64,000 nt of DNA from Candidatus Bathyarchaeota archaeon (GCA_963707955.1 OY970176.1:864001-928000); one strand, 5' to 3'. Positions 4,854-43,773 are shown, numbered from the stretch's first letter. Notes: a model not told the origin generated them from the letters alone. Numbers and translations are program-made.

Positions 4854-4888
4854 TGCAATCACCACGCTCATATAGTCAGAATAGGGAA

Positions 4889-8115: not shown

Positions 8116-8184
8116 GCTTGACGCGCAGTGGTCCGACGTTTAACCCAGAGTTTTTCGGTGAATTCGTGACAATTGTTTGAAGTT

Positions 8185-21493: not shown

Positions 21494-21688
21494 ATGAGCG
21501 TAACGAAAACCCGAAGAGTTGGCGGTTCGCTGGTCGTGACAATACCCAAGAAACTCATCGATAGTAAGAAAATCAAGGAAGGAGAGTTGGTGGAGATAAG
21601 CGTAAGGAAGGTAAAGATGGATGGGTTCGGAGCATTTAGAATGCTGAAACCGTTCACGGCGGAAGACGAGTTGAACGCGCATGACTAG
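21494..21688 (+). CDS. AbrB/MazE-type antitoxin (VapB-like)
   Basis: TRRVGGSLVVTIPK...IKEGELV; overlaps the PIN gene. Confidence 0.85.
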   Translation: MSVTKTRRVGGSLVVTIPKKLIDSKKIKEGELVEISVRKVKMDGFGAFRMLKPFTAEDELNAHD

Positions 21689-22088: not shown

Positions 22089-22301
22089 TCTTCTATGACT
22101 CCTCCTGCGACGGGAGAGCAGATATCTCATAGTATCTAGGCATATCTCCTCGGTTAATAGGCAAAGGCGAAATCTACTAGGTAAGACATTCGGAACGGAT
22201 TTTCTATCAAGCAGAGCCCTGATTCAGGTATCGACTATGGGGTAAGCAAAGTCTTATACAATCTGGGTTAAGACTAACTGTCTCCGAGACTAGCGCGCGG
22301 G

Positions 22302-27862: not shown

Positions 27863-28332
27863 TATTAGTGCCAATTATCGATGCTGATCAGATAAGGATA
27901 TGGACGGAAGATATTCCGGGAAAGTTTGCAGAACTATTGCGGATTTCTGACCCATTGAATGTCTACATATCTTCTCCATGGATAAGTGAATTTGAGCATC
28001 CGTTAATAAATCTCAGAAGGATTCTAGCCAAAAAGAAAGCCAGTACTATAATACTGACGAGACCGCCACAGAACCTTGCCTCAAAACGATTTCTCGCAAG
28101 ACTTAAGAATGAAACTCCTACAAGGATTTATGTTAACAGGCGTCTTCACGCCAAACTATACATAATTGAAGGACCCAAGCAAAAATACGTGGTTATCGGC
28201 TCATCCAATTTTACGCAGGAAGCACGTTTCAATGTTGAATTCGCCGTAGTAATCGTGGGAAGTGATATCATGACAAAAAGAGTAATATACAGTTTCCTCG
28301 CATACCTGAAACCAGCATGCGCGATTTGGTGA
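27859..28332 (+). CDS. Phospholipase D (HKD)-family nuclease, DpdK-like
   Basis: ISSPWI, LHAKLYI...IGSSNFT...N.E. Confidence 0.88.
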   Translation: MILVPIIDADQIRIWTEDIPGKFAELLRISDPLNVYISSPWISEFEHPLINLRRILAKKKASTIILTRPPQNLASKRFLARLKNETPTRIYVNRRLHAKLYIIEGPKQKYVVIGSSNFTQEARFNVEFAVVIVGSDIMTKRVIYSFLAYLKPACAIW

Positions 28333-29516
28333 CTGATTTGCAGTGTTCTGACTATGGTTTGAAGCGTCCATCTTTTCAATTAGATCCAGAAATGGACAGC
28401 GAGATATTTGTGGGCAGAGAGGACGTAAAGAAACGTTTGGAGGATCGCCTTAAACGCGCAATTGTAACTGGCACGAGTCTTCATACCTTTATATACGGCG
28501 ATTATGGATCAGGCAAGACTCATACTCTGAACTATGTCTACAGGTTCTTGAATAAGCAGGATCTCAATGTCTTGCCTATACTTGTTCGTCAGCCTAGGAT
28601 TACGCAGAAATCCGACCCATCTGACTTGTATGCGAGCATTGTTTCGGCAGTCTCAATTTCCGAGATTTTCACCTTGTTTGTTAGGGTACACGACTCCGTT
28701 CAGACCAAACTTAAAGATATAACCGACTTGTACAAACGCGTAGAAGTACTGCGAGGAGTGGTTGAGAATAGAGATTTGTCATTCATCATAAACAATTATG
28801 TTACGAACAGACCGATCGAAGATTATGCCGTGGTCAAGTGGCTTTCGGGCGAAAAGATGGCGGCTAGAGAGAAGGCCGTTTTGAATGTTGTCACGGACAA
28901 CTCTGATCCTTATGTAGCTATCCAGACACTTTTAGCTCTCGTTAAGCTATTTAACAAGATAGGGAAAAAATACGTTTTGTTAATGCTTGACGAGATGGAA
29001 TCTTTGCAAATGATAAGCAGCGAGAAAAAACAAATGCCTTTTGAGGAATTCCTACGGATCCTCACGAGCGAAGATAAAGGACTTGGGGTCCTGTTGGCTC
29101 ACACTACGAAACAAGCCCTAGAAGATGTGACGCCGATGTTTAAAAGCAACACGGCAATAGGTACAAGAATTGGCTATCCGCAGAATTACATTTATCTCAA
29201 ACAATTTGAAGACATGGAATCAATGAAGACCTTTGCGCGGCAGCTCATCAGCGCGTTGAGGGACCCAAAAATCGACGTAAAAGCTCTGGCAAAGAAAAAT
29301 CAGAGCAATACAAACGAACACCTAGCTCTTGATTTCTATCCCTTTACAGAGGAAGCAATTGAAGCAATACACCAATTATCTCAGGGTAGTGGCATGATAA
29401 AACTGTTACTGCCGCGGGACATTCAAAAAGTCATGACGGATAGTCTGGGGGATGCGATGATTCAAAACAGGGCTTTCGTCGATCAAGAAATTGTCTCAAA
29501 GATCATGTCAACCTGA
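28317..29516 (+). CDS. P-loop AAA ATPase (BrxD/Cdc6-like fold), module 1
   Basis: FVGRE, YGDYGSGKTH, LMLDEMES, FYPFTEEAI, PRDI. Confidence 0.88.
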   Translation: MRDLVTDLQCSDYGLKRPSFQLDPEMDSEIFVGREDVKKRLEDRLKRAIVTGTSLHTFIYGDYGSGKTHTLNYVYRFLNKQDLNVLPILVRQPRITQKSDPSDLYASIVSAVSISEIFTLFVRVHDSVQTKLKDITDLYKRVEVLRGVVENRDLSFIINNYVTNRPIEDYAVVKWLSGEKMAAREKAVLNVVTDNSDPYVAIQTLLALVKLFNKIGKKYVLLMLDEMESLQMISSEKKQMPFEEFLRILTSEDKGLGVLLAHTTKQALEDVTPMFKSNTAIGTRIGYPQNYIYLKQFEDMESMKTFARQLISALRDPKIDVKALAKKNQSNTNEHLALDFYPFTEEAIEAIHQLSQGSGMIKLLLPRDIQKVMTDSLGDAMIQNRAFVDQEIVSKIMST

Positions 29517-29530
29517 TTTGAATTGAACCG

Positions 29531-30706
29531 TTAAGCTCGGATGTATCTTCTTCCTGGAATACGCGTAGAGAAATCGAATTTCCTAACCTTTGCTAGTTGC
29601 ACAATCTTTTCCCCATACTCAGCATAGCTCAGACTCTTCGAAAAATCAAGAGAAGAAGCAAGTATCGAAAAGTACAGATCCTCATATGGTATCATGATTA
29701 GTCCAATGTATTTGTAGAATGCTGTGAAGTGAGAGAATTGTCTTTCGAATTCTTCATCAGTCAAGGCGACTAGTCCCTTTCCGTAATTCTCTGCTAGAAG
29801 GATTCCAAGGTTGTTTTCCTTGTCATCGAGGAGTTTTGATACTGCTTTGTCGTCTAACGAGGTCAATTGTTTCTTGAAATCCTTGGCGAGATCACTTAGG
29901 CTAAACTCAGAGCGTTCCTTCATAACAAAACCTGTATCCCTAAGAAAGTGCAATCTGGGGTAAATCTGGCTCTCTCTATGGATTTTGCCATATCCACCTT
30001 CCTTCTCGCTTTTTGCAAATCTGGCTTTCTCTGCTGCATAGAAATTGCGTCTGGTCGAATTTAATTCAATTTGGGCCTTTCTCTCATACCACTTGCTTAC
30101 AGCTGCAAAATATCGATCCTGCAAATCTGATTCAGTGACACTGTCATCCATACACTGAATAAGAGGAATTGTCCCATCCGGGTCTGACGATAGAAGAGCA
30201 TTTGCAAAGACAAATTGCTCGGACCGTGGTAACTTTGCAACTAATCCCCTAGTCCTAAGCATCTCCTCTTTTTTCTGAGGGTCAAGAAATAGAGGTTTTC
30301 CTTTGTCATCTGAGTATCTACCCGCAAGATGCCATCCGTACTTACGCCAAATGTTTATCTCTGGTTTGATAAAACCTAGATTTTGCGCTAACAAGACATG
30401 GCCCATTGCGATAGAATCCTTGCTTGCGACAACGGTCTTGTCGCCAATACCGCTCCCTGACACGGAAAGATTCGTTTCAGGATCCTCATTCCACTTGTAC
30501 TCTTCCCTGTATTTCCTGACAGTTTCCTTGTATTTTGCGACCAATTGAGATGTAAAAATGTAACTCGATGGAAATGTCAGCAGCACAATTACCTTTATGA
30601 AGCCCAACCTTTTCAGCGGTAGACTGAGATTTATGAAACGCTCGATCATCAAGATACACTGTACAGTGAAAGATACATATAAAAAAGAGTGTTTGAGAAC
30701 TAGCAA
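29531..30706 (-). CDS. Hypothetical protein, probable tandem winged-helix; co-transcribed after dpdA
   Basis: Long ORF with HV.LAQNLGFI and PRLHFLRDTGFV...FSLSDLAK wing-like segments. Confidence 0.6.
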   Translation of the reverse strand: MLVLKHSFLYVSFTVQCILMIERFINLSLPLKRLGFIKVIVLLTFPSSYIFTSQLVAKYKETVRKYREEYKWNEDPETNLSVSGSGIGDKTVVASKDSIAMGHVLLAQNLGFIKPEINIWRKYGWHLAGRYSDDKGKPLFLDPQKKEEMLRTRGLVAKLPRSEQFVFANALLSSDPDGTIPLIQCMDDSVTESDLQDRYFAAVSKWYERKAQIELNSTRRNFYAAEKARFAKSEKEGGYGKIHRESQIYPRLHFLRDTGFVMKERSEFSLSDLAKDFKKQLTSLDDKAVSKLLDDKENNLGILLAENYGKGLVALTDEEFERQFSHFTAFYKYIGLIMIPYEDLYFSILASSLDFSKSLSYAEYGEKIVQLAKVRKFDFSTRIPGRRYIRA

Positions 30707-30745
30707 TAATGAGAGTTCAGTAATGTTACCCCTTTGCTTGAGTTC

Positions 30746-32491
30746 TTAAGGTATGTATTTCAAAAGACCTGCCTCGGGCGGGGTTGCTTTTTCAATGATA
30801 TTACACAAATCCCCATAGCCTTTGCTCCTGATGATCGTGAACCGATCGTCCCAGAGGTTATGAAGTGCTTTTCGATACTTCTCTCCTGCAATTACAACTA
30901 TTTTATCATGTTCTTTGAGTAATTCTCCCAACTTCTTTTCGACAGCGGGTTGGATATCTAGAACATCTTGTTCATTGCTGAGGATTTTTTCGTAACCACC
31001 AATGATGTCGTTCGGCAAGAGCAAGCCGTATTTTGCAGAGATGATTACGTAGTTGAACCCCATTGCTTGACAATATCTCCTAACACACTTGAACAATCGG
31101 CCTTGGTACATCTCTTGGGCAGTTGTTCTGACGTTAATACGGTAACCGAGTTTCCTTTTGCTACACTCCGTTACGACGAGAACGTTGTCGCCTTTCTTCA
31201 AAGACGAAAGCTCTGTTCCGGGTTTTTTTTCTCTCCAGTTCATGAATGCAGCCCATAGTTTCGGGTTCTTGAAGACACTGTGAAAAACATATGTATTGTG
31301 AAAACCTCGACGGCGATTACGGTTATTTCCCCTGAATATCACCACCTCGATGCCGGCTTGTCTGCATATTGGGCAACCGCATGATTTCCAGGGCTTATCT
31401 TCCAAGGTTCTGCGGTAAAAAGGTAACAACTCAGGACTCTCGCCTATGGCTTTGTTGAATCTAAACAAGACCAACATTACTTCATCAATACTTGCTTCAT
31501 TTCCATCATACAACCTCAGAGTCTTCAAACTCTCTTGCTCGAGGTTTTTCAACCGGGGAAGAGCAAAACCGGCAGGCAGTTTCTTCGCTCTCTGTGCCCT
31601 CAATTTATTCGTGAAAGGAATCCTTATCGCCGTATAACCTTTCCCTTCAGGATTCAGATAGTTAAGTTGAGACATGGGGGCAGACAACCAAGCCTTACGA
31701 AGATATGAAGCTGAGTCAAATCCAACTCTAACCCCCAAATTCTCCAGTTCCTGGAAGCGCGGAAACAAAGCAGTTCTTGCTAAACCGAAAAAGTGAAGAT
31801 AAGTGGGCATTTTCTTTGAGTGGCTTATCTCAACGAGCAGCTCATCTATCAACTTCGCTATGAATGGAGTCAACGATCGTGAAAGACCGCCAAACGCTAA
31901 GTGTGAAGCACCCATGCCAACGTAGTTCTTGTACATCTTGATGTAGTCTGAGATATCCCAACCTTGAATGGCCACTACAAGTTGAAAATCATCGATGTAT
32001 CTTTTGGACCATTCTTTGTAGGCTTTGACACCATTTTCATAGGTGATTTTCATTCTTTCTTCTTTGTGATTCTTGAATTGAGGGACTACTAGGTGATCCA
32101 CAGATACACCATAGTTGAACCCTAATTCCTTGTAGTAATCCAGGATCCTTACAGGGTCAAATGGAGGCTTTTTCTCGTTTACATATCCAAAGGCTCCGCA
32201 GTCTCCAAGAATTTCAAAATTCTGTGGAAGTCGCAATGCTTTGTGGATTCCTTCAAATCGAGCTTGGGCGTATTTTCTCCTGTCTTCCTCTATCGTTATC
32301 CGCGATATAAGTAGACCATCAAAAGGAACTTTGTCCGGTCCAAATATCTCCCACATATAGACATCATTCTTCGTTGGTTCTTGCTCATGTTCTGGCGAAT
32401 GTGTGTCACTGATGAAATCATATCTTGGATCAACGCGATCATTCCACTCGGGTATGAAGTACTTCAATGTTTTCTCCTCATGCTGAATCAA
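30746..32491 (-). CDS. dpdA: DNA 7-deazaguanine transglycosylase DpdA fused to a YaaA/DUF6884-like domain
   Basis: YFIPEWNDRVDPRYDF, GDCGAFGY, SVDHL, IQGW, HFFG, FDSAS, CGCPIC...IFRGNNRNRRRGFHN (DpdA hallmarks); C-terminus TECSKRK...MYQG...IISAKYGLL. Confidence 0.88.
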   Translation of the reverse strand: MIQHEEKTLKYFIPEWNDRVDPRYDFISDTHSPEHEQEPTKNDVYMWEIFGPDKVPFDGLLISRITIEEDRRKYAQARFEGIHKALRLPQNFEILGDCGAFGYVNEKKPPFDPVRILDYYKELGFNYGVSVDHLVVPQFKNHKEERMKITYENGVKAYKEWSKRYIDDFQLVVAIQGWDISDYIKMYKNYVGMGASHLAFGGLSRSLTPFIAKLIDELLVEISHSKKMPTYLHFFGLARTALFPRFQELENLGVRVGFDSASYLRKAWLSAPMSQLNYLNPEGKGYTAIRIPFTNKLRAQRAKKLPAGFALPRLKNLEQESLKTLRLYDGNEASIDEVMLVLFRFNKAIGESPELLPFYRRTLEDKPWKSCGCPICRQAGIEVVIFRGNNRNRRRGFHNTYVFHSVFKNPKLWAAFMNWREKKPGTELSSLKKGDNVLVVTECSKRKLGYRINVRTTAQEMYQGRLFKCVRRYCQAMGFNYVIISAKYGLLLPNDIIGGYEKILSNEQDVLDIQPAVEKKLGELLKEHDKIVVIAGEKYRKALHNLWDDRFTIIRSKGYGDLCNIIEKATPPEAGLLKYIP

Positions 32492-32823
32492 TACCTAGTT
32501 TTGGCGAAGTGGGTCTTTAACATTTTGACTTTGTTCTGCACGCAAGCAAGGTTGAAATAGCCTAAATAAATCCGATTTACTTACCTCATCTATCCTCCAA
32601 GGTATTCTGCTAGAATGAAGCGGATTGTTTCTTGGATCGTTCCTAGCTTTCTTTTTTCTCTCTCTTTCTCCAGAGTTCGATTCATTGAGTCCGGAACCGA
32701 CATAGTGAACTTCTTTGCCATGATGTTTGCCTCTTTGGAATTCTATGGGCGTAAAAATATTTATAAGTAGGTAATTCTTTAGAAGTCTAAAGAAGTAACC
32801 ATATTGAGGAGAATTATTGTCCG

Positions 32824-34005
32824 ATGAGCAGTGAGAATACTCCCTTGGATTTTAGGTCAGCAACGAAGAAATATGAAAAGTATGGGCTCACGTGTAATCC
32901 CTTTCCTTATGTGGGTGTGCCTGATGACACATTGTCGTTGTACACAGATCGCAAGAGAGAATTGAAGACAATTGAAGAGGTCGTCAGAGTTTCCTTGAAT
33001 GGCACATCCTCGCATATAGTCTTGGTTGGGAGTTATGGAAACGGGAAGACGCACACGATGAAATACATCAAGAAGCAGTTGGAGAGCCAAGTGCAGAACG
33101 CTCAGGTGATATACATTGCCGCTCCTGGAGACCGATTCTTGTCACTGTATGCAAATCTGATGTTCGAATTCGGTTTTGATCGTCTGGAAAGCCTGGTGTG
33201 GAGATTCCTGGAATTTGTCAACGGCGAAGAAAATCTGAGGAAGAAAGTGAATGATGGCGAAGTGCTTTTGCCCGAGATCCTAGAGATCGGCAAGAGACGA
33301 TTGCGGAATGAAGTTAAGTATACAGACTTCGCAACTGCTTTTCTCAAGTTGACTCTAGAAGAGTACAAATTCATTGCATGGAAGTACCTATGTGGAGAGC
33401 CTATTCCTTTTGAGCATCGAAGGGAACTCGATGTTGTTATGGCAATAGACAATGACGACAAAGCTCTGAGGGCTTTCATGAGTTTGAAGAAAATCCTTTC
33501 ATTGCTAGGGAACAAGCTGATATGCATACTGATTGACGAGTTTGAGTCCATTGAGTATGTTAACATACTCTTGAAGCAGAAGATCCTTAACAGCGTTCGT
33601 CATCTAATAGATCTTAACCCGCAAGGACTTTGCCTCATAATCGGATGTGCTCCAGACGTTTGGGTTGACATAATCAAAGAATACCACGCCTTCTCCGAAA
33701 GGATATTCAGACAAGTCACACTTCGAGCGCTTAACAAGGAGGACCTGCGCAATTTCGTTATTTCCTACCTACGACATTTCCGAGTCAAAGATTCGGATCC
33801 ACCGACGGATATCTTCCCTTTCACTGAAGATGCAGTTAGCGAGATCCAAAAGGCAGCTGAGGGGAATATACGTCGAATGCTTATGATCTGTAACCAGGCG
33901 ATTGATTTTGGAGTCGATGCAGGATTTCCAACTATGAACGCAAAGAAACTGAAGGAATTGCTGCCTGATCTTTTCGAAATCTCTACGCAGAGTAGTACGC
34001 CTTGA
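32824..34005 (+). CDS. P-loop AAA ATPase (BrxD/DUF2791-like), module 2
   Basis: YGLTCNPF, YTDR, GSYGNGKTH, ILIDEFES, FPFTEDAV, GNIRR. Confidence 0.9.
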   Translation: MSSENTPLDFRSATKKYEKYGLTCNPFPYVGVPDDTLSLYTDRKRELKTIEEVVRVSLNGTSSHIVLVGSYGNGKTHTMKYIKKQLESQVQNAQVIYIAAPGDRFLSLYANLMFEFGFDRLESLVWRFLEFVNGEENLRKKVNDGEVLLPEILEIGKRRLRNEVKYTDFATAFLKLTLEEYKFIAWKYLCGEPIPFEHRRELDVVMAIDNDDKALRAFMSLKKILSLLGNKLICILIDEFESIEYVNILLKQKILNSVRHLIDLNPQGLCLIIGCAPDVWVDIIKEYHAFSERIFRQVTLRALNKEDLRNFVISYLRHFRVKDSDPPTDIFPFTEDAVSEIQKAAEGNIRRMLMICNQAIDFGVDAGFPTMNAKKLKELLPDLFEISTQSSTP

Positions 34006-35085
34006 CGCTAGACGATGACCTATCAATGTTTCAAATAATAGCTTCGGACAACCTAGCCAGAATTGGTGAGTTAGAAACAAAACATGGATTATTGAAGACG
34101 CCAGCACTATTTCCGGTGCACAATCTTGGCACAGAGGGTGGCTGGAATACGCCCCGGTACTGGGAAAGATACCCTTTTATCAACACGGCCATGTTTAACG
34201 CGTCTTTTCTTTCAATGAACAGAGGTGGGCATCTCGGAACAATCCTGCAGATAGGTGTTCAGCGCTTCATCAGATTCTTTGGAATATCATTTGCTGACAG
34301 TGGCGGGTTCATCTACAAGAAGTACAAGCTGACTCTCAAACCGGAGAGGATTTTAGAAATACAAGAAAAAATGGGAGCAGATATAGCTTCTACTCTTGAT
34401 TATCCAATCCAATGCAAACCGATTTCTGAAAACACCAATGTGACACGTACGATAAAGAACGCTAAACTTGCTCTTTCTTTGAGAAGAGATCCAAAGTTGC
34501 TTCTTTTTGCTAGCATAAATGGATATGACCCTGTGGTTCTGAGAAACGCTGTAAAAAACCTAAAGAGAGCGGGCGATTTCGACGGTTTCGCAATAGGCAG
34601 TTTGATGCCGAGGTACACCAACTATAGGCTCCTGGTCGATTTTATACTCGCTGTGAAACTTGAAGCCCGCGAGACTCCAATACACGTATACGGGTTAGGA
34701 AGTCCGCTTGTCACTCATCTTCTGATGTTTCTTGGCGTCGACTCATTTGATTCCTCCTATTTTGTAGTAGCTTCTGGAAATAGAATCTACTCAATTCCTG
34801 GTTACGGACGCACGGAGTTCAAGGACTTGCACGAATCTGATTCCCCTCCATGCCAATGCCCTGTATGTCAGAAGCATTCGCTCTCTGAGCTTGAGGATAA
34901 GTCGGGAACTTCTCACGCTTCACAACCTATGGACGCTATGGAATGAGATAGATCAAACGAAAACAGCCATTAGAGAGAGAAGACTTGAAGAGCACCTTTC
35001 TTACCGTTTCAGAAACGCAAAATGGGCCAAAAAAGCCTTCGAATACGCAAAACATCGAATACAATATCGTTTCTCGGGTGGTTGA
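34002..35085 (+). CDS. TGT-fold transglycosylase (archaeosine-TGT-like catalytic domain, no PUA domain), frameshifted near 34890
   Basis: ARIGEL....LKTPALFPV, ADSGGF, TLDYP, GFAIGSL, HVYGLG, GVDSFDSS, CQCPVC; Zn-site His LTLHNL lies in the +1 frame 34891-35085. Confidence 0.85.
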
Positions 35086-35940
35086 ATGAGTCTGAGAAAA
35101 ACAATGCGGCCTGTAACGTTGAAAAGAGTAGTAGAGGTCTGCAGCTTGGCAAGCGAGAATGAAGCCATAGACATTGTTGTTGTCTCACAGAGACTCGGCG
35201 TGAGTCATTCCAGAGCCGAAGAGATCGTTCTTGAAGTGGAGGAAATGAGGTTGTTGACAAATCTTGGGGACAAGTGTATAGCTAATCGCGAAACTTCAGA
35301 GTTTCTTAGGCATTTCGAGAACGAGCGATGGGAGAGAATTCATGAGCATTTCCTGGAGAAGTATCGTTTCTACAGAGATTTTATCCACATACTCGCTGGC
35401 CATATTGATGACGAAAAAGGTCTGTCTTTAGAGGAGATCAAAGAAGAATCGACGAGTCGACAATTAAGCCTGAACCAAACGGCAGTCGAGGTCTTGTCAG
35501 ATTGGTGTGACAGACTAGGTGTAATCCAACGACATCTTTACACTAGACGAATTTACACAGTGCGGAAGGATATTGAACCTAAGATTTTCAAAATTGCCCT
35601 CTGCAAATGCTATCGAGAACTTTCCACATGCCATGGGCGAAAAGGAGTATTCGTCGAGATACCGACGATGAGAGAAGATACTTGTGAGAATTTGAAAATT
35701 CCAAGAAAGACCTTTGATGAAAGATTGCGTCTCCTCTTCTTAGAAAATATAGGGCGAATTGAGCTAAGCGGAGCCCCGATCATAACTCTTGCAAAAAAGA
35801 GTCCATTTACCGAGAAGAAAATGATGTCTGATAGCAAAGCTGCTATATTGTCTCCAAAATACGAAGTGAAAAGAGAAAGGGAAGGTTTAGCAGTGGGTCA
35901 GAAAACTTACTATTACTTGGCGATTCATGAGAGCATCTAG
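35086..35940 (+). CDS. Hypothetical protein, probable multi-winged-helix DNA-binding protein, module 2
   Basis: VSQRLGVSHSRAEEI HTH-like segment, LSDWCDRLGVI, VEIPTMRE..CE.L. Confidence 0.65.
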   Translation: MSLRKTMRPVTLKRVVEVCSLASENEAIDIVVVSQRLGVSHSRAEEIVLEVEEMRLLTNLGDKCIANRETSEFLRHFENERWERIHEHFLEKYRFYRDFIHILAGHIDDEKGLSLEEIKEESTSRQLSLNQTAVEVLSDWCDRLGVIQRHLYTRRIYTVRKDIEPKIFKIALCKCYRELSTCHGRKGVFVEIPTMREDTCENLKIPRKTFDERLRLLFLENIGRIELSGAPIITLAKKSPFTEKKMMSDSKAAILSPKYEVKREREGLAVGQKTYYYLAIHESI

Positions 35941-36085
35941 AGAACAGTCTTACTGTTGTCGCCTACACGCATTAGGACCTGTCTTTGGCGCAATCGTCTA
36001 TCGCCTTGGCGACTTGTCAGCGTTTGAAGACGGTGCGGAAGCACTCTAAGGTGTTGTCTCTAGGCATGCGAGTGTAGATGCAAAA

Positions 36086-36724
36086 CTAGACGCCTTTCTT
36101 ACTGCCCCACACAATTTTATGTTGCTGAAGAATAACCCTTGAATCAAGCCCATCTTTCTTGGCAAACTCTACCAATTGCTTAGCGAATTTCCTGTGCGCC
36201 CATTCGGGTTGGATGACCACGTTTAATGGACTCAGGCGTTCAATGATTCTCTTGGCATATTCGTAGTCCATTCTATTGGCGACCACGAATTTGAACTGAG
36301 TTTTGTGATCGTATAATTCTCTTGTTTTCCCCAAAACACGTTGATCACTTTGCATTCCAGAAGAAGGGCATTTGCAGTCCATGCTGATCAAGTCCACTGA
36401 ATCAAAGATCCTTTTGTGGAAAATCGTTCCATTTGTGTTTATTTGTATCCAATATGCATGATTTTTCAGCTGTTTAACAAGCTTTACCACTTCTTCGATC
36501 TGACAAAGAGGTTCTCCCCCAGTTATTGAGACGCTTTTGCAGGGATACTTTACGATTCTGCTTATCGCGTCCTTGACATCCATTTCCTTACCATTTTGAC
36601 GCGCATATTTTGTGTCACACCAAGAACACTCAAGATTGCATCCAGCCAGTCTGATGAAAATCTCCCGTCTCCCAATCTGAATTCCTTCACCTTCAATGGA
36701 GTAGAAAATCTCTGAAATCTTCAA
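36086..36724 (-). CDS. queE: 7-carboxy-7-deazaguanine synthase (radical SAM)
   Basis: ISEIFYSIEGEG, FIRLAGCNLECSWCDT, ITGGEP, QQHK. Confidence 0.95.
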   Translation of the reverse strand: MKISEIFYSIEGEGIQIGRREIFIRLAGCNLECSWCDTKYARQNGKEMDVKDAISRIVKYPCKSVSITGGEPLCQIEEVVKLVKQLKNHAYWIQINTNGTIFHKRIFDSVDLISMDCKCPSSGMQSDQRVLGKTRELYDHKTQFKFVVANRMDYEYAKRIIERLSPLNVVIQPEWAHRKFAKQLVEFAKKDGLDSRVILQQHKIVWGSKKGV

Positions 36725-37470
36725 ATCTTGCCCTCTTGTCTCAATTTGAGAATTAATGGGTCTTCAATTCCAGCTTCCTGAAATCCTTTGGCCCTGAGCA
36801 AACAAGCATCGCATCTTCCACATGGTACTTCCTCACCAGCGTAGCAGCTCCAGGTCAACTCCAGAGGTGCCTTTAATTGCATGCCTAGTTCCACGATTTC
36901 TCTTTTGTTCTTGAAGAGTAGTGGTGTCTCTATCTTCATTTCGACATTGTATTGTGTACCAACTTTGCTCGCGAATTTCATCAAATCATTAATCCGAGTA
37001 TAGAATTCTGGTCTGCAATCTGGATATCCCGAATAGTCCGTAACGTTGGCAGCAATGAAAATTCTGGCCTCTATGTCTCTTGATCTAATACCATCTTGTT
37101 CAAGCTTGTAGAGGATCTCGGATTCGAGGTATGCTGCAGCCAGAATTATTAGAAAGGTGTTTCGCATTGGAACATATGTTATCGGTATCGTTTTTGACAT
37201 TTCTTCAGGGACTCTGTTTTTAGGAATGGCAAACAACTCTGGGTGAGTTAGGGCCGAGTACCACGCCATGTCTTTGTAGGATGAAATGTCAACTATTGTG
37301 TGCTTGATTTCCAGCACCTTGGCTATTCTCTCAGCACATTGAACTTCTTTGCTAAGCCGTTGACCATAATGCACCGTAATGGCATGCACATCATAACCTA
37401 GACTCTTTGCATAAGCAGCAGTTGTTGTTGAATCCAGTCCGCCGCTAAGCAGAATGACACCTACCTTCAT
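36721..37470 (-). CDS. queC: 7-cyano-7-deazaguanine synthase
   Basis: LSGGLDS, TYVPMRN, YSGYPDCRPEF, TWSCY...CGRCDAC. Confidence 0.96.
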   Translation of the reverse strand: MKVGVILLSGGLDSTTTAAYAKSLGYDVHAITVHYGQRLSKEVQCAERIAKVLEIKHTIVDISSYKDMAWYSALTHPELFAIPKNRVPEEMSKTIPITYVPMRNTFLIILAAAYLESEILYKLEQDGIRSRDIEARIFIAANVTDYSGYPDCRPEFYTRINDLMKFASKVGTQYNVEMKIETPLLFKNKREIVELGMQLKAPLELTWSCYAGEEVPCGRCDACLLRAKGFQEAGIEDPLILKLRQEGKI

Positions 37471-37506
37471 GAACCCCGCCTCATCATAATGTAATAAGCA
37501 CGCAAA

Positions 37507-37866
37507 TCAACTCTGAAAGTACTCGCACCAACTGTTGGTGCTTTCCCAGACCCTAACCTTTTCCAATCGAACAGATTCTGGCAGATCTTTCAAATTTCGG
37601 TAGATGTATCGCGAAATGTTTTCGGAAGTTGGGTTACCTATGTCTTTGAAGTGATTGAGATAAGAATGGTCAAGTTTTTCAGTTATCTGGCACAAGTTTT
37701 TTTTCAGGGTCTTGAAGTCAACTAGAATTCCGATATTGTCAGGCTTTTCTCCGATAACAAAGACTTCAACTTTCCACGTGTGTCCATGAAGTTTTGAGCA
37801 TTTTCCTTTGTATCCAACTAACTTGTGTGCTGCATCGAAATGCGATTCAATCCTCAGCCTATGCAT
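37507..37866 (-). CDS. queD: 6-carboxy-5,6,7,8-tetrahydropterin synthase
   Basis: FDAAHKL...CSKLHGHTW, LDHSYLN, NPTSEN, VWES. Confidence 0.95.
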   Translation of the reverse strand: MHRLRIESHFDAAHKLVGYKGKCSKLHGHTWKVEVFVIGEKPDNIGILVDFKTLKKNLCQITEKLDHSYLNHFKDIGNPTSENISRYIYRNLKDLPESVRLEKVRVWESTNSWCEYFQS

Positions 37867-37880
37867 TGTTTCACCACCAC

Positions 37881-38674
37881 CTAGAGAACCCCCCTCCACT
37901 CTGAACAGACATTGTGATCATGGATCGACTCGAAGCTCACGCATTTCACTCTGCAATATTTCGAGGGATACTTCTCTTTCAGCAATTGAACACATTTTCT
38001 GACAACATCTTCGACGAATCTAGGGTTCTTATGGATTCTCTCTACAATCTCTTTTTCTTCTGGTCTCTTTAACAACGAGAACGTTGGCGAACTAAAACTC
38101 TGATTGCAGATGTCTATGATGTCCAGGAGTTCGATGTTGTTTCTTGTAATGTCAATCGCTACGCTTAGGGTCCCTCTTTGATTGTGGGTCAGACCGTTAC
38201 ACATTTCTTTCGAACAAGGACAAGCTAATACACCGCTCAGAGAGATTCCAACTGTCTTCTGCTTTGATTTGGTGGAATATGTGGCAAACATCCTCGCAAC
38301 AGAGTTCTCGGTCTCTCCACTTGGTCTTGTTCTTTCAAAAGGAAGTTGGCCGAATACTTTGGTGAAACAATTGTAACCGTGCTTTGCGAAGGCATTTTCA
38401 GAGATTTTTTGCGCCAAGTCTTCTATTGACACAGTTTCTTTGGGATCTCTTCAACCGATTCCACGAACCTGCTCATGTGGACCCCTCGAAGATTAGAAGG
38501 CAGAGTTATGTAGCTGTTTATGGCGACAATCACGTGATAGAGTTTGTCTGGTCTCTTTACCACGACGTATTTTTTTAGTCCTTCTACTCCGACTTTCTCT
38601 AACTCGATTTCATTCTCTGGTTTTTCATTCTGCACATCAATCATTTCAGCAACTTTACTATCTACGTTTTTCAA
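37881..38674 (-). CDS. folE2: GTP cyclohydrolase of the FolE2/MptA family, split by a one-base frameshift near 38440
   Basis: DVQ, VGV, RGVHMSRF in 38423-38674; ACPCS, HNQRG, LLKRPEE, NPRFVEDVVR, ESIHDH in 37881-38432. Confidence 0.88.
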
Positions 38675-38677
38675 TGC

Positions 38678-39007
38678 CTACTTCACTCTCCCAGTCAAAA
38701 GATCCTCGTAGACCCGTCTCATGTGAAACACGGCGACTGCAGTTTTCTCATCCAAATTGCATCTGCATGCCTTGCACGACTGGCATATCAACCATCCGCA
38801 CTTGGGGCAAACCGCGGTTTTTGCCGAATCAATTTTTTCGCCGCACTCAAAGCAATAGACTTCCGGGTTGGCGAAGAATTCTAAGAAGTTTTCAATAAGC
38901 CTTGATACTGGAATATGCTTCCGTTTTGCTTCAGCGACCGCTCTTTGTTTCACTTTCTTGTCGATAGTAACATTCAACTTTTCCTTTGTCTTAGCCGACG
39001 GATTCAT
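38678..39007 (-). CDS. Ribbon-helix-helix plus Cys-rich zinc-finger protein, putative regulator of the preQ0 operon
   Basis: KEKLNVTID...A......PVSRLIENFL (RHH) followed by CFEC, CPKC, CQSC..C.C. Confidence 0.75.
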   Translation of the reverse strand: MNPSAKTKEKLNVTIDKKVKQRAVAEAKRKHIPVSRLIENFLEFFANPEVYCFECGEKIDSAKTAVCPKCGWLICQSCKACRCNLDEKTAVAVFHMRRVYEDLLTGRVK

Positions 39008-39176
39008 ACGCCTTGATACGTATTAAGGCGCATTTAATACTTGCTCACGTGTCCATGTAAAAAGCGCGCGCACTGACAAGCTTGAATTCCTATTCACGCA
39101 AGTCAGTCGTGAACTGGCAAGATATTATTATGAGTTCTTCAGTAACTGATCTTGCCGGTCGGAGTGTTGAAATCAG

Positions 39177-39677
39177 TTGAATGTCGAAACGTCCAATGCC
39201 ATTTTGTTCAAGGTTGCTAGGGAATTGCAGGATAGATCTTTGGAGCAAGGTTTGAGTTTGGCGTTGAGAGGCGGGCTTGCAGTCCATATTCTGATGGCGA
39301 GCGTTGGAAAAGAGCCAAAGGACTGGAGGCACAAAGATATTGATGTTGTGCTATTGGAGAAGCAACTACCCAATTTCATAGCTTTGATCAAGAGTCTTGA
39401 GTATGTTAGATCCCCTCTTTCGTCAAAGACCGAGAACTGCCATGTTTATCAAAATGAAGTCAATGGAAGAAGAGTTTCAGTCAATTTCGTAGGCCAGAAA
39501 ACTCTCGAAGTCGAGGCAAAAGAATACGATGGGTACTACTATAATATTATGCCACCTCAGCTTCTGTATGAACAGATAAGGGAGAAATGGATTTCAATGG
39601 ACAAGAACCCTAAAGTCGCAAGGTCTGTTGACTTCTTGAATGGATATGTCAAACATCAAGTTCAGGAGAAACGTTGA
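39177..39677 (+). CDS. Minimal nucleotidyltransferase-fold protein
   Basis: LRGGLAV...HKDIDVV (GG...DxD Pol-beta superfamily motif). Confidence 0.7.
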   Translation: MNVETSNAILFKVARELQDRSLEQGLSLALRGGLAVHILMASVGKEPKDWRHKDIDVVLLEKQLPNFIALIKSLEYVRSPLSSKTENCHVYQNEVNGRRVSVNFVGQKTLEVEAKEYDGYYYNIMPPQLLYEQIREKWISMDKNPKVARSVDFLNGYVKHQVQEKR

Positions 39678-40618
39678 TGATTGAAGGCTCATATCGGGCG
39701 TCTTTTAGGGAGGTGCGCAGGTTGGCCTATCTTAGGTTTGCCTGCGACATTATGGCGATAGAGAAATCGAGCGAGATCAACTTAGCCAGTGAGAAATTCC
39801 TTAATAAGACAAGAACCCTGAACTGGAAACTAAGAACATACACACGAAACACTGGAAAAGTTGAAAGGATTTCGGTGGCAAAGAACCATTTTATAATAGC
39901 GAAGGCGCTTGGGCTAATGAAGATAGAAGGCGAGTTCGTCAAGTCAACTAGTATATCTGCTTTCTTTGCATCCTTGCTAAAAAACGATGAGAACCCATTT
40001 TACCTGTCTCTAGAAGAGAAACTCTCCTTTTTCGAGGAACTGTTCGAGTACAAAGGTCAGGATTTGGCCCCATTGCTGATTCTGTTTGATGATGAAGATT
40101 GGATTGATCTCGGGGAAGGAATAAATAGAATGAAAATAGAGCCAAGACCCCATGTTGATCAAATAGTGAAGTCTGGTTTTGATTGGTTTGTTGATCTTGG
40201 CCTGCTAAGTGCCACATCAGCGAGGAAAGGCAAGTTTGGGATAACAAGAGTTGGCAAGAGTCTGAGGGAGGTTCTTGAATCCAGCAACGGCAGTCATAAA
40301 TCCTCAACTCTACTTGAAGTGTATGCGGAAGATCTCTTGGGTCATATTGATATCTTGGACAGGGCAGATGACGAGTCCATAATGTCATCTTTCCATAAAG
40401 CGAGAGAGAGAACGAGAAAATTTGCAACTAGCGAGATTAGTCGTGATCTCCTTTCTGCCCTGCCAATCGTCCTATTCACACGGTTGCAACTGCTGGCGAA
40501 ATATAGGATACTTTTAAGCGTGGATGAGCTGATTACACATATGAGAGAACTACTTCCCAAGAGTGGAATATCCTTCAAGTGGGATCCCATATACAAAGGG
40601 GGTTACATAAGAACATGA
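39674..40618 (+). CDS. Hypothetical protein, probable winged-helix, module 3
   Basis: NHFIIAKALGLM, NPFYLSLEEK, DWFVDLGLL...FGITRVGK. Confidence 0.65.
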   Translation: MMIEGSYRASFREVRRLAYLRFACDIMAIEKSSEINLASEKFLNKTRTLNWKLRTYTRNTGKVERISVAKNHFIIAKALGLMKIEGEFVKSTSISAFFASLLKNDENPFYLSLEEKLSFFEELFEYKGQDLAPLLILFDDEDWIDLGEGINRMKIEPRPHVDQIVKSGFDWFVDLGLLSATSARKGKFGITRVGKSLREVLESSNGSHKSSTLLEVYAEDLLGHIDILDRADDESIMSSFHKARERTRKFATSEISRDLLSALPIVLFTRLQLLAKYRILLSVDELITHMRELLPKSGISFKWDPIYKGGYIRT

Positions 40619-41811
40619 AAAGCTCAATCCCAAAGGGATACAAGCAGACCATGAAAGAGCTAGGGTTAAAAAGAAACCCATTTCCTATCGAAGCCCCAAA
40701 CTCAGTTGACCATTGGGCAGATTTCAAGAAGTTATTTGACAAACTTCTGGAAGTTCACCTTCAAGCATTACTTAATCCGTCCCCTAGGATTTACGTGTAT
40801 TGGGGCCATTTGGGAACTGGGAAGACTCATGCGTGCAGATATTTCTGCAATGTTAAGACGCAGAAAAAACTGGTCGAGTCTGTGCAGAAGAGGGGATCGA
40901 TCGGAAAGGTAAAGTGTGTTTCAGCGGCAGCCCAGATTCCAGGAAAGACTGGGCAACTAGTATATCACGTATACTTGCAGATCCTTTCAAGACTTCTAGA
41001 CGAAATGACTAAGGAGGACTTCAAAGACCTGTCAAATATCACCGGAGATGCTGGACCATCTTGCGTGATGGCGCTCAATAGTCTTGCTCGGGGGATAACC
41101 GAGCAGACTCAGCTTTCCGGTCCGTTTTTTGGTTTGATGAAGAACACAGAGGAGTACAGATTCCTCACCTTAGGGAGAACCAGAAAATACGGAACTCTGG
41201 AAACAACATCGGATCTCAGCCTGGTCATAGAGAGGATCTTGAAAGCGATTTTGAGATCATATCGAGTGTTCATCTGGGTTGATGAACTGGAAGACCTCAG
41301 GGAATCCAATCTGGTCGAGAGAAGGTTGTTCAGCGACTTCATACGTAGTGTCTACGATGAAATAGACTATGGCCTAACAATCATTCTAAATTTCTCCTGT
41401 GATACGTTTGACGAAGTCGAAAGACTGCTGTTGCCAGCCGTATGGAGCAGAATCAGAAAGGAAGACACCCAAGAAGGTGTAATCGAGTTTCAACTTTTGA
41501 AAGATGATGGTGACCTGCGAGAATACCTTCTTTCCAGTCTGAGGTTTGGAAGAGGTGCTGATCCCAGTGAGATCATAGAAAAGGAAGCCGCCGAAAGCAT
41601 TCTGGAGACCATGAAAAGGGAGGGAGGCAAGAATGGAATATCACCAAGAGATTTCAACAGAAGAATGCAGGAGTTGTTGTGTAGAAGTTATTATTTCTGG
41701 AAGAAGGAAGGCAAAGGTGAGTTTAAGATAACGAAAGCATCTATTGAACAACCAGAGAAACGCCAAGAAATGCTTGAAGAGCTGAGAGAGAAATTGCTTG
41801 GTGGAAACTAG
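40615..41811 (+). CDS. P-loop AAA ATPase, module 3
   Basis: LGLKRNPF, WGHLGTGKTH, IWVDELED, SPRDF; ATGA overlap with the upstream gene. Confidence 0.88.
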   Translation: MKSSIPKGYKQTMKELGLKRNPFPIEAPNSVDHWADFKKLFDKLLEVHLQALLNPSPRIYVYWGHLGTGKTHACRYFCNVKTQKKLVESVQKRGSIGKVKCVSAAAQIPGKTGQLVYHVYLQILSRLLDEMTKEDFKDLSNITGDAGPSCVMALNSLARGITEQTQLSGPFFGLMKNTEEYRFLTLGRTRKYGTLETTSDLSLVIERILKAILRSYRVFIWVDELEDLRESNLVERRLFSDFIRSVYDEIDYGLTIILNFSCDTFDEVERLLLPAVWSRIRKEDTQEGVIEFQLLKDDGDLREYLLSSLRFGRGADPSEIIEKEAAESILETMKREGGKNGISPRDFNRRMQELLCRSYYFWKKEGKGEFKITKASIEQPEKRQEMLEELREKLLGGN

Positions 41812-41814
41812 GCA

Positions 41815-42522
41815 ATGGCAGAAACAAAGGAGGAAGAGCATAAGCTAGTTTTCGTCTTCGACAATACTTTCTTGGATTTCATTTACTGCAAGCAATTGGA
41901 CCTCAAAATCCTCGATTTAATTAGAACAGTGTTTGATCTCACTCTGGGCAATTTAGACCTGATGATAGTGACTGACAAAGTTCACGATAAGATGGTCAAA
42001 AAATACGCGTACCCCTATGGTGATGAATTCGATAGAATGCATAAGAACTGGGTAAATTTGGCTGAAAGACTTTATGGGAACTCGGAGGTTTTTTGTCAGC
42101 ACTACGAGACTAAAAAGCGTTTTTGGGAAAGGGCATTCGGTTGCTGCAGAACCCACTTTGCGAGTGAAGATGTTGATTTGATCACTTCGGCTGCACTTCT
42201 AAAGCAGAAGCAATTCAATCCTGTTATAGTTTCCGACGATTCCCGCCTCATTTACTTTTCGGATATAATGTCTTCCTATTTTGGCTTCTATTTTAGATCC
42301 TTTTCCACGTTTGAACTGCTGTCGTACCTAGGTACGCCTAAATGCCGGCGAGAGCTCTTCCTTTCCAAGAATCATTTTGACCTGGGAATGAGTCTTGCTT
42401 CACTGAATGATAAGCGAGGAATCACCAATTGTCAGTCTCTCGTTGAGGACCTGAAGGCTGCGACGAGAAAAGGGGTTTTCTCTACGCACTATTGTTCTGC
42501 AAAGTTCCCCCAAACGGTTTGA
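41815..42522 (+). CDS. Divergent PIN-like domain protein
   Basis: FVFDNTFL...SEDVDLITSA...IVSDDSRL acidic pattern of PIN nucleases. Confidence 0.65.
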   Translation: MAETKEEEHKLVFVFDNTFLDFIYCKQLDLKILDLIRTVFDLTLGNLDLMIVTDKVHDKMVKKYAYPYGDEFDRMHKNWVNLAERLYGNSEVFCQHYETKKRFWERAFGCCRTHFASEDVDLITSAALLKQKQFNPVIVSDDSRLIYFSDIMSSYFGFYFRSFSTFELLSYLGTPKCRRELFLSKNHFDLGMSLASLNDKRGITNCQSLVEDLKAATRKGVFSTHYCSAKFPQTV

Positions 42523-42630
42523 ACACACTATTGACACCGAATCAGGTGAAATCCAACTTCTGTCTCTACACCGTCACAAACTACAGCAATTCTAATAACA
42601 TAACAGAACTTTTCTAAGAAGCAGAAGAAA

Positions 42631-43773
42631 ATGAAAACAATAAAGCCGATGCTATTTGCGGTTTACAGTGTCTGGGGAAACCAATGGCTAAAACTCGCCA
42701 TGTTTATGCAAGAATGGTGCAGAGACATAAATGTACTCGTGAGCACGGATAGCGTCTTGAATAGTAGTGTTCCAAGGTATGAAGCAATTACAAAATATGG
42801 ATTATCAAAAGGTTTCATAAAGACAAGGGAAGAATACCGCGAATTCATGGAAAATACGGCAAGAAAATTCCCTTATTTGTCGAATTATCTGGACGAATTC
42901 GAGAAACCATTGCCAAAGATGACGTCCCTGTTTATGCTGGACAGCGGTGGATATGGTTTTACAAAGGCTTTCGAAGGTAACAACATACGTAATCAACTGA
43001 GAATACGCATCCCAGATCTCTACAATTGTTGGAAGCACGGAGACGAAAAGTCTCAAGACATGGTTCTGGAGAAGCAGCAACTCCTAAAACCGGATATTCT
43101 GATAACCCTTGATAAAGTTATCTTCCCCAACGAATTGGCCAAAGCAAAAAAGGAGAAAATTGGATTCAGCCTCAAATGCGCAAAGATAGCACTTCAGCGA
43201 AAAAAAGAAGGGATCATCGGCAATACAGCCTTGTTCGCAGCAGTTCATGGTTATGGACCAAGTCCCAACAATGGACCAGAAAAGTACTATGATAACACAA
43301 GAGAGTACATGAATAACTTGTTGAGCTTTGAGAGTGAAGTAGGTGTTCGCTTTGATGGCTTTTCAATAGGATCTCTAGTTCCAATATCGAACGAGCAGAT
43401 ACTAAGCTCGATAGCTAACGCAGTCCGGGATGTCCTCGGAAGTGAAAGGCGTAAAACGGCAGTCCACGGCCTTGGTGCCTCTACTGACAACAAAATATCG
43501 ACGCTCTACAAGTGTGGAGTCAGGATCTTTGACACAAATCTCCACATGAAGAATGCGAGGAATCGATTAATATACCATCCAACTGAACGCAGATACGTTA
43601 GTACCAAAAAGATCAAAAAAGAAGATTGGGAATGCGACTGCAAGATCTGCAGCAACTATACTTGGGATATACTGAACGAAAATCGTCGGAGAGTTCGCGA
43701 AGTTTCCACCGTACTCATCTCACTTCATAACCTATACACTGATCATCTGAGATTCCTTGAAACTCTGCGCTGA
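42631..43773 (+). CDS. Third, divergent TGT-fold transglycosylase
   Basis: MLDSGGYG, ITLDKV, AVHG, DGFSIGSLVP, VHGLGA, GVRIFDT, CDCKIC...LHNL. Confidence 0.85.
   Translation: MKTIKPMLFAVYSVWGNQWLKLAMFMQEWCRDINVLVSTDSVLNSSVPRYEAITKYGLSKGFIKTREEYREFMENTARKFPYLSNYLDEFEKPLPKMTSLFMLDSGGYGFTKAFEGNNIRNQLRIRIPDLYNCWKHGDEKSQDMVLEKQQLLKPDILITLDKVIFPNELAKAKKEKIGFSLKCAKIALQRKKEGIIGNTALFAAVHGYGPSPNNGPEKYYDNTREYMNNLLSFESEVGVRFDGFSIGSLVPISNEQILSSIANAVRDVLGSERRKTAVHGLGASTDNKISTLYKCGVRIFDTNLHMKNARNRLIYHPTERRYVSTKKIKKEDWECDCKICSNYTWDILNENRRRVREVSTVLISLHNLYTDHLRFLETLR

Follow-up and report, generated by a model that had tools for sequence, protein, structure and literature searches.

To our knowledge, the bacterial Dpd cluster and phages provide the only systems for placing 7-deazaguanine in DNA whose workings have been established. 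In the Dpd cluster of Salmonella Montevideo (dpdA to dpdK), the ParB-like ATPase DpdB is needed for the insertion of 7-cyano-7-deazaguanine (preQ0), and DpdC converts the inserted base to 7-amido-7-deazaguanine (ADG) (PMC10164549). For a second system, termed BREX-related capture (BRC), the published proposal includes an NTPase that stands in for DpdB, 7-deazaguanine as the mark, and a BREX-like chassis with a tRNA-guanine transglycosylase (TGT) (PMC12839542, NAR 2026). A third, the SspABCD/type 4 BREX module, combines the triple winged-helix-turn-helix (wHTH) protein SspB/DUF4007, the ATPase SspC/BrxC of the ORC/Cdc6 clade, and a DNA-modifying enzyme (PMC10853773, PMC12839542), and a capture theme has been described that joins HerA, an ORC/Cdc6 ATPase, a nuclease and a fast-evolving multi-wHTH protein (PMC10853773). 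Here we analyse an island of transglycosylase, ATPase and winged-helix genes found in 64,000 nucleotides of DNA from Candidatus Bathyarchaeota archaeon (GCA_963707955.1 OY970176.1:864001-928000; hereafter, the window), which sits within one contig of 2,346,764 bases (864-928 kb of a 2.35-Mb genome). The available parts of the Dpd and phage literature describe no archaeal cellular loci of this kind, and literature searches on DUF6884 and on archaeal DpdA/DpdC fusions yielded nothing specific to such a context.

The island occupies about 20-45 kb of the window and holds a preQ0 operon and three genes of the TGT family, of which one is a DpdA-DUF6884 fusion and two are short TGTs. It also encodes four BrxD/ORC-like ATPases that are related to one another, one of them fused to a PIN domain. 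Absent from the original prediction were this PIN-fused ATPase, the HerA and PLD genes that share an operon with ATPase 28317, and the preQ0 operon. Over 23.4-45.3 kb the gene order is as follows, with proteins named by their leftmost coordinate. On the left lie an orphan of 427 amino acids, an ATPase-zinc ribbon-PIN gene (minus strand), HerA, a PLD gene and ATPase 28317. In the middle are P29531 and DpdA-DUF6884 (both minus), ATPase 32824, TGT34002, P35086 and QueE/QueC/QueD/FolE2 (minus). On the right follow a ribbon-helix-helix (RHH)-like gene, an orphan of 166 amino acids, P39674, ATPase 40579, the 235-amino-acid protein 41815 and the divergent TGT42631. Genes were called from a listing of open reading frames (ORFs) together with Pfam, NCBIfam and PADLOC scans, which covered 23 island proteins and, in the case of Pfam, 36 plus 3 further ORFs of the window; PADLOC has no model for P29531, P35086, P39674, 40579 or 41815.

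GC content is 0.42-0.45 over 20-46 kb and 0.47-0.51 in both flanks, the right one being a housekeeping-type NurA-HerA-Mre11-Rad50 operon. Genes for TBP, Alba and an arcTGT in other parts of the genome identify the host as an archaeon. Searches of the whole genome placed both copies of the family of P29531 and P39674 (hereafter, the X family) and the single copy of the P35086 family inside the island. Pfam PF10923 matched two island ATPases and, partially, a site at 210 kb, and PF01702 matched the two short island TGTs, the C-terminal fragment of TGT34002 in another frame, a 540-amino-acid housekeeping arcTGT at 1.97 Mb and, weakly and partially, a site at 661 kb (E 0.007, under the cut-off). 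Among genomes of the same family neither the X family nor DpdA was matched (0/25 each), and the island is therefore variable; its closest related loci come from Bathyarchaeia metagenome-assembled genomes (MAGs), and all loci compared here are numbered from L001 onwards. The clustering of TGTs, ATPases and winged-helix genes is not by chance, and the architecture is real and conserved.

We propose, as a reading to which we give an even chance, that the island is a composite defence of restriction-modification type, in which 7-deazaguanine would be the self-mark and a conserved writer core would be combined with interchangeable reader/nuclease cassettes. The mechanism, which we infer throughout from gene content, homologies and conserved neighbourhoods, would begin with the preQ0 operon supplying the base. 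The writer core would consist of the DpdA-DUF6884 fusion, predicted to insert preQ0 and to convert it, in a DpdC-like manner, towards the amide, and of the triad 32824/34002/P35086. In this triad the ATPase and the BrxA/SspB-like winged-helix protein would find and open target DNA for the transglycosylase, a role that may be likened to that of DpdB's ATPase in Salmonella Dpd and of SspB/SspC in Ssp. The other two modules would be reader/restriction cassettes, each of which would combine a paralogous ATPase and a nuclease with a winged-helix protein of the X family, the nuclease side being PLD with the HerA translocase in module 1 and a PIN-like protein in module 3, with the ATPase-PIN fusion beside them. 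Such cassettes would be writer-agnostic, having an N6/N4 DNA methylase as partner in other genomes and a TGT in the methylase slot here.

The DpdA-DUF6884 fusion (30746-32491, minus strand) matches NCBIfam DpdA (NF041059) with 331.4 bits (6.8e-99; cut-off 200) and PADLOC DpdA at 5.4e-87. Its C-terminal, DpdC/DUF328-like domain matches Pfam DUF6884 at 9.4e-16 and PADLOC DpdC at 2.7e-6 over about 50 residues (455-506), and no separate DpdC gene was found; the fusion homologue of L031 matches H2O2_YaaD/DUF328 at 3.2e-5, under the cut-off. The fusion adjoins the triad in the window, L002, L003, L004, L114 and L115 and lies 3.4 kb off in L006, the contig of L001 being too short to show the arrangement. 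Therefore, its steady companion is the 32824 triad and not ATPase 28317 and P29531, with which the original prediction had paired it. A DpdA search in 401 genomes of the phylum gave eight matches at E<=1e-10, three of them above the cut-off, including the window's genome. Three of the seven foreign genomes with DpdA were examined (G115, G380 and G394), and four f15 genomes lay outside the comparison. G115 and G380, from other families of the phylum, carry a DpdA-DUF6884 gene for 615-627 amino acids beside a winged-helix protein (P35086-family profile, 9e-12 and 4e-11), a BrxC_BrxD-type ATPase (2e-23 and 1e-19) and a TGT of about 300 amino acids, in the order winged helix-ATPase-TGT, divergent from or adjoining the fusion. 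G115 also has a Vut_1 gene of preQ0-transporter type, both genomes have helicase and PLD genes, and G394 has a TGT, a DUF5591 gene and NurA-HerA, with no triad.

Scanning the collection with the fusion added one locus, from Chloroflexi (L101, a MAG). At 3050-8918 it shows the reversed order, DUF6884 then DpdA, with a UvrD helicase, a PD-(D/E)xK nuclease and a Vut_1 transporter; the same UvrD and nuclease pair flanks the archaeal fusion in L006 (11219-14433). Also beside DpdA-DUF6884 stand genes similar to DNA glycosylases (AGOG-like, OGG N-terminal domain) in L002 (3807-4775) and L006 (16291-16834), which could handle base-excision intermediates or act as readers.

The triad consists of a BrxD/ORC-like AAA+ ATPase (32824-34005, plus strand; Pfam BrxC_BrxD 8.6e-10 and ORC-CDC6-like 3.7e-7, both above cut-off), the short TGT34002 (34002-35085, plus; Pfam TGT 2.8e-33), which is catalytic barrel and zinc site alone, and P35086 (35086-35940, plus). 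As assembled, TGT34002 is frameshifted at 34891 and stops at 34946; in another frame the conserved C-terminus, which holds the fourth zinc ligand (His), continues to 35085, there being one extra base near 34891 relative to L001. Four public runs, which possibly include the source sample and are thus not fully independent, were compared at this position: X4 gives no coverage there, and the contigs of X1, X2 and X3 (one each, depth 31.1, 6.9 and 5.3) lack the base. Therefore, the gene is most likely intact, and the insertion in this closed, long-read genome is probably an indel error of assembly. A status as pseudogene was considered and dropped, as the base is absent from the contigs of three runs. 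Across seven intact sequences of this family, the motifs DSGG, DxFD and CxCxxC...H are invariant.

Searches with TGT34002 found 30 loci, six of them archaeal (37-89% identity) and 24 mostly bacterial (23-36%). Homologues of the ATPase and of P35086 adjoin the TGT in 6/6 archaeal loci and in two deeper loci, the order being ATPase-TGT-winged helix in L001-L004 and TGT-winged helix-ATPase in L005-L006. By identity, the three proteins rank these six archaeal loci alike, with 90/70/70/70/41/37% for the TGT, 88/70/71/70/38/36% for the ATPase and 68/54/52/53/33/30% for the winged-helix protein. The co-occurrence of the three genes across genomes, proposed as a check with the original prediction, is thus seen in all six of these archaeal loci but not in the 24 others, where no BLAST match to an island ATPase or partner occurs within 8 kb; we regard the TGTs of the latter as ordinary tRNA enzymes.

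P35086, a triple winged-helix protein with an N-terminal half that is BrxA/SspB/FokI-like by model, has 90 relatives of about 285 amino acids each, no Pfam match and no match to DUF4007 even at E<=10; a scan of the collection with its alignment gave no loci beyond those known. Its AlphaFold2 model (pLDDT 88.3, pTM 0.85) contains three winged-helix units, for which Foldseek retrieved SelB 4xWH (9.7e-5) and RPC62 (6.6e-4). VIA aligned the first 160 residues with FokI (Z 7.9, 154 aligned) and BrxA (Z 7.9, root-mean-square deviation (rmsd) 3.3, 148 aligned), and P35086 also with SspB (Z 7.3, rmsd 14.1, 227 aligned) and 3bhw (Z 6.8), BrxA, FokI and SspB being among the top rows. The fold similarity is modest: Z scores of 7-8 for BrxA and SspB are, according to the tool, the typical best for models that have no true match, and scores in this range may reflect a common arrangement. 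The proteins so listed are nevertheless the set named as structural kin of BrxA (PMC12839542). A complex prediction of the L001 TGT with its P35086 homologue scored 0.00, which weighs neither for nor against binding.

The kinship of the ATPases, noticed at the outset together with their motifs GxxGxGKTH and hhhhDE.E, is borne out by BLASTP and by the translations. ATPases 28317 (28317-29516, plus) and 32824 match each other at E 4e-17, 32824 matches 40579 at 2.5e-4 over 359 residues, and the PIN-fused 24685 matches 28317 at 1e-8 and 32824 at 2e-6. Pfam BrxC_BrxD (PF10923, cut-off 22.2) gives 67.8 bits for 28317 (1.1e-18) and 38.5 bits for 32824, and has no match in 40579 and 24685. Against the NCBIfam equivalog for BREX BrxD (cut-off 350 bits), 28317 and 32824 reach only 44.9 and 29.5 bits (E 8e-12 for 28317), and by these profiles they are classed as BrxD-like, not BrxD. 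ATPase 40579 (40579-41811, plus) is a P-loop protein and distant paralogue of these two (AAA_22 2e-5, under cut-off). The fourth paralogue (24685-26334, minus) is a P-loop ATPase followed by a zinc ribbon and a C-terminal PIN (Pfam 2.6e-5, residues 418-533; 25.3 bits, above cut-off), a fusion that supports the notion of ATPase and PIN working as one unit. Its Walker B motif reads D-H instead of D-E.

With these parts in hand, the locus can be set beside the described systems. It resembles Dpd in its DpdA, which scores above cut-off, in the preQ0 genes that the island carries, in a putative DpdC-like domain, in a PLD nuclease that is weakly DpdK-like, and in its predicted logic, which is that of restriction-modification with deazaguanine as the mark (PMC10164549, PMC5699537). 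It differs in having no DpdB in the genome, no DpdD-J, a DpdA fused to DUF6884 and two TGT paralogues besides; it has instead ATPases of the BrxD/ORC-like kind together with multi-winged-helix proteins, and its host is an archaeon. At E<=0.01 the DpdB model (NF041060) had no match anywhere in the 2.35 Mb of the genome, a search of unproven power since control genomes also lack a match, and ParB_N matches occur solely at 278 kb and 1,696 kb, more than 500 kb from the island. Among the 23 island proteins, the DpdD-K restriction models matched nothing but, weakly (DpdK), the PLD gene. Like BRC, the locus brings together HerA/FtsK, a TGT homologue, an ORC/Cdc6-type ATPase and a multi-helix-turn-helix protein that is a candidate BrxA/DUF4007 relative. 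Unlike BRC, the island has no PglZ, DUF6079 or GNAT by Pfam in the ORFs scanned, its ATPases are short and BrxD-like rather than BrxC-like, and the DpdA-DUF6884 fusion, the preQ0 operon and the three TGT paralogues set it apart from BRC as described in the available part of that paper. By their defining features, therefore, it falls outside both Dpd and BRC, yet would work like both.

The likeness to Ssp concerns the triad P35086-32824-TGT, which appears to fill the same three roles, with a P35086 model that aligns with SspB; here, however, the modifier is a TGT and not a PAPS reductase, no cysteine desulfurase is present, and there is no similarity to SspB or SspC at the level of sequence. 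The BREX/Ssp analogy drawn by the original prediction is thus apt for this triad, but too simple for the other two modules. Its further idea, that ATPase and winged-helix protein replace DpdB as the loader, is favoured for the triad by the lack of a DpdB match, the BrxC/BrxD-ORC-like ATPases, the conserved neighbourhood and the P35086 fold, but fits less well where the P39674-ATPase cassette is not TGT-specific and where 28317 shares an operon with HerA and PLD. Since both cassettes have nuclease genes and that of P39674 has methylase partners elsewhere, two of the three supposed loaders look at least as much like restriction/reader arms.

Module 1 begins with a HerA/FtsK-type translocase (26366-27862, plus; Pfam DUF87/HerA 8.8e-13, PADLOC HerA models to 3e-17), the first gene of an operon with a small PLD-family (HKD) nuclease (27859-28332, plus; Pfam PLDc_2 1.3e-8, a weak DrmC match, and DpdK at 1.5e-4 with 21.4 bits for a cut-off of 100) and ATPase 28317, the three reading frames overlapping end to end. 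The helical protein P29531 (29531-30706, minus), which has two winged-helix domains, is encoded immediately downstream of the DpdA fusion in the same orientation. L002 keeps the order HerA-PLD-ATPase with the P29531 homologue convergent, the PLD homologue being 72% identical and in the same position; there, two genes, one of them AGOG-glycosylase-like, separate the P29531 homologue from the DpdA fusion. P29531 has 12 collected relatives and no Pfam match. Its AlphaFold2 model (pLDDT 79.8) places winged helices at 126-261 (CzrA, Z 7.8, rmsd 2.8, 86 aligned) and 283-358 (ORC winged-helix domain, Z 7.7), shows no nuclease-type sheet or recognisable nuclease fold, and found no match in the PDB with E below 0.09 by Foldseek. 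The set HerA-PLD-28317 with P29531 resembles the HerA/FtsK-ORC/Cdc6 capture neighbourhoods (PMC10853773), but in the sets as published there the REase or iREase is inserted in the ATPase, whereas here a small PLD stands apart and the locus is tied to the DpdA fusion.

Module 3 starts with P39674 (39674-40618, plus), the second X-family winged-helix protein, which has six collected relatives and is the first gene of a cassette followed by ATPase 40579 and the putative nuclease 41815. The three partner proteins, taken by the original prediction as one family, show no BLASTP similarity among themselves, and hhalign aligned the P29531 and P39674 families end to end (77.9%, E 1.8e-5, 277 columns) and left P35086 apart from the X-family members (0.1% and 0.4%). 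P29531 and P39674 are thus probable homologues, P35086 belongs elsewhere, and of the suggested common fold what remains is that all three are multi-winged-helix proteins, though of two families. It follows that the threefold repeat first noticed is real, but it is not one triad in three copies. Profiles of the P35086, X and PIN-like families retrieved nothing from PDB sequences (best E 0.28, 0.15 and 0.1).

Protein 41815 (41815-42522, plus) had been called PIN; it has no Pfam match and hhalign to the PIN of 24685 reached just 0.2%, but its acidic residues (in 12 aligned sequences D142 is invariant, and D16, D21 and D141 nearly so) and its ESM Atlas leads to PIN families (score 0.88-0.91, TM 0.44-0.47) make it a PIN-like candidate. 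The cassette is followed by TGT42631 (42631-43773, plus; Pfam TGT 8e-20), a divergent TGT with an N-terminal extension of about 100 amino acids, whose translation shows DSGG, FD and CxCxxC...H. With it, all three TGT-superfamily genes first reported stand where they had been placed (DpdA 331 bits; Pfam TGT 2.8e-33 and 8e-20). Its sole relative found, in L031/L032 (36% identity), adjoins the cassette, and scans of the genome collection with TGT42631 and with the X-family alignment gave none.

In metagenomes the P39674 alignment retrieved 19 loci, among which L031/L032 and L041/L042 appear to be each one sequence filed twice. X is followed by the ATPase in 16/19; L044 and L046 end just past X, and L049 has no ATPase despite room. 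BLAST shows a 41815 homologue as the next gene in 12 loci, to which position and alignment add L041/L042. In 8/10 loci scanned with Pfam, an N6_N4 DNA methylase (PF01555, E 5e-22 to 3e-45) adjoins the cassette, convergent downstream in seven and upstream in L043; L031 has a TGT instead and L037 is cut. BLAST adds a methylase in L038 and L041 and a weak match in L044. A TGT takes the methylase's place solely in the window and L031/L032.

Weak X-family matches also occur in 27 other genomes of the phylum. Twelve distant loci were fetched, each with an X-like ORF of 365-396 amino acids (hmmsearch 3e-9 to 3e-16), and in 11/12 the gene immediately upstream, in the same orientation, encodes a methylase 37-42% identical to that of L043, and neither an ATPase nor a nuclease is present. 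The X protein thus appears to be a recurrent immediate partner of a DNA-modifying enzyme, to which the ATPase-PIN-like pair would be an add-on. Longer X-like proteins (520-577 amino acids) carry an N-terminal extension of about 190 residues in which no Pfam domain was found (28 scanned; one has a sub-threshold DUF3244 match), and therefore no informative fusion emerged. The methylase-then-X pair (L085-L096) occurs in 12/17 genomes of one family, which is unusually stable for a restriction-modification pair.

L031 (758-20260) is a sister island with NurA-like, HerA and HNH genes, a 396-amino-acid DpdA-like gene, MazG and the TGT-X-ATPase-PIN-like set, and in addition DpdA-DUF6884, a further TGT-family gene, HxlR, Vut_1 and DUF5591 (ArcS-type); it has four TGT-family genes in 10 kb.

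These neighbourhoods bear on three other explanations. It is unlikely, in our judgement, that each ATPase and winged-helix pair is the dedicated, DpdB-replacing loader of its own transglycosylase, so that the island would hold three parallel deazaguanine writers on a BREX/Ssp-like chassis. No DpdB was found, an ATPase and a winged-helix gene lie within 2 kb of every TGT-family gene, and the order modifier-then-X (DpdA-P29531 here, TGT-X in L031, methylase-X in 11/12 distant loci and in L043) fits X as partner of the modifying enzyme, all the more as methylase-X pairs exist with no ATPase or nuclease nearby. However, the module 3 cassette is common to methylases and includes the PIN-like gene in every locus whose contig extends far enough, 28317 shares its operon with HerA and PLD and not with DpdA, the partners are not one family, and the conserved neighbour of the DpdA fusion is the 32824 triad.

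Another possibility, which we hold to be quite improbable, is that one or both short TGTs place deazaguanine on protein or RNA, for example on a neighbouring ATPase, as a switch of a defence effector. The transglycosylase family includes a modifier of the N-terminus of a SMODS enzyme, and TIM-barrel relatives that regulate effectors have been described (10.64898/2026.10.19.760177, in the available part). TGT34002 has its best match in the tRNA enzyme model arcTGT (6e-43, 146.8 bits, below the cut-off of 350), and a conserved core with both a DpdA fusion and a short TGT calls for two different jobs. Nevertheless, the 540-amino-acid housekeeping arcTGT has a C-terminal tRNA-binding part that is missing from the short TGTs, TGT42631 stands where a conserved cassette otherwise has its DNA methylase, and the partners are winged-helix proteins of DNA-binding type.

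Defence genes are known to cluster, and the island could be a pile of unrelated ones whose adjacency reflects no functional coupling, as its PIN, HerA and RNase J-like genes and the two contigs behind the module 1 context might suggest. This account is already disfavoured and we consider it very improbable, since the triad stays intact through three gene orders even where identity is as low as about 20-25%, 12 metagenome loci repeat the X-ATPase-PIN-like cassette beside a DNA-modifying enzyme, and the genes overlap or abut.

The reading of a writer core with reader/nuclease cassettes has to answer several points, besides the ordinary Z scores of P35086. That DNA is the substrate of the three TGTs is suggested by DpdA family membership and context, and the X family, whose model has no recognisable nuclease fold, may be a reader, a specificity subunit or a nuclease. 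The P29531-subfamily context of module 1 comes from two contigs, L005 has the triad with no DpdA fusion within 8 kb, and the Chloroflexi L101 has the DUF6884-DpdA fusion without any triad. In three archaeal families the methylase-X pairs hold a conserved synteny beside a phosphoribosyltransferase gene, a pattern closer to that of gene pairs inherited vertically than to that of a mobile defence system. Lastly, the island QueC (36721-37470, minus) is the sole full-length QueC match in the 2.35-Mb genome, two others being partial, and the operon may therefore also serve tRNA archaeosine.

The preQ0 synthesis operon itself (36086-38674, minus) encodes QueE, QueC, QueD and a FolE2/MptA-like enzyme by Pfam and NCBIfam. 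The FolE2/GCHY-1 gene (37881-38674, minus) comes in two overlapping ORFs that cover profile positions 1-68 and 80-259, with a break at about 38423-38432; its N-terminal piece (38423-38674) matches GCHY-1 positions 1-68 at 2.4e-17. Either the assembly contains a second indel error here, or the enzyme that opens the preQ0 pathway is truly frameshifted. Next to the operon, a small RHH-like protein (DUF6364, 5.4e-7) with a Cys-rich tail (38678-39007, minus) has homologues of 55-72% identity in L001, L002, L004 and L031, beside related islands, and may serve the island as regulator or antitoxin; in L002 and L004 an ORF of about 222 amino acids and of no family precedes its gene. The 166-amino-acid protein (39177-39677, plus), whose stop overlaps the P39674 gene, has a weak Pfam match of nucleotidyltransferase type (0.056), no assigned family and no homologue in the related loci.

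At the left end, the 427-amino-acid protein (23395-24678, plus) belongs to no family: it has no Pfam, NCBIfam or PADLOC match and no GxxxxGK[ST] P-loop in its translation, and ESM Atlas leads to AAA_16/AAA_22/ExeA folds (TM 0.43-0.50) suggest that it may have an ATPase-like fold. Membership in the X or P35086 families was tried and rejected (hhalign 0.05% and 0.4%). Converging on the 24685 fusion, this orphan may form with it a fourth module without a TGT of its own. Further left, at the island edge (21681-23051), a stand-alone PIN gene (1.9e-13) is probably what remains of a toxin-antitoxin pair, and a methyltransferase fragment of 124 amino acids is probably a broken gene. At the right edge of the low-GC region lies an RNase J-like beta-CASP metallo-nuclease gene (43893-45275, minus; TIGR00649 2.9e-28, under cut-off), which converges on TGT42631.

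Beyond this single island, it is tempting to speculate, though we hold this to be a tentative and somewhat doubtful generalisation, that archaea may possess a plug-in epigenetic defence. In it X, an ORC-like ATPase and a PIN or PLD would form a reader/effector that serves any adjacent writer, a separate BrxA/SspB-like and BrxD-like pair would be a DpdB-independent loader, and up to three deazaguanine marks or motifs could coexist on one chromosome. As no DpdB was found and yet an ATPase and triple winged-helix pair is conserved, this pair is a testable candidate for an alternative loader. The exchange of methylase for TGT beside one conserved cassette would be a natural experiment on restriction machinery that reads different marks. 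The X family, with 148 representatives, and likewise the P35086 and PIN-like families, would thereby gain a concrete functional context.

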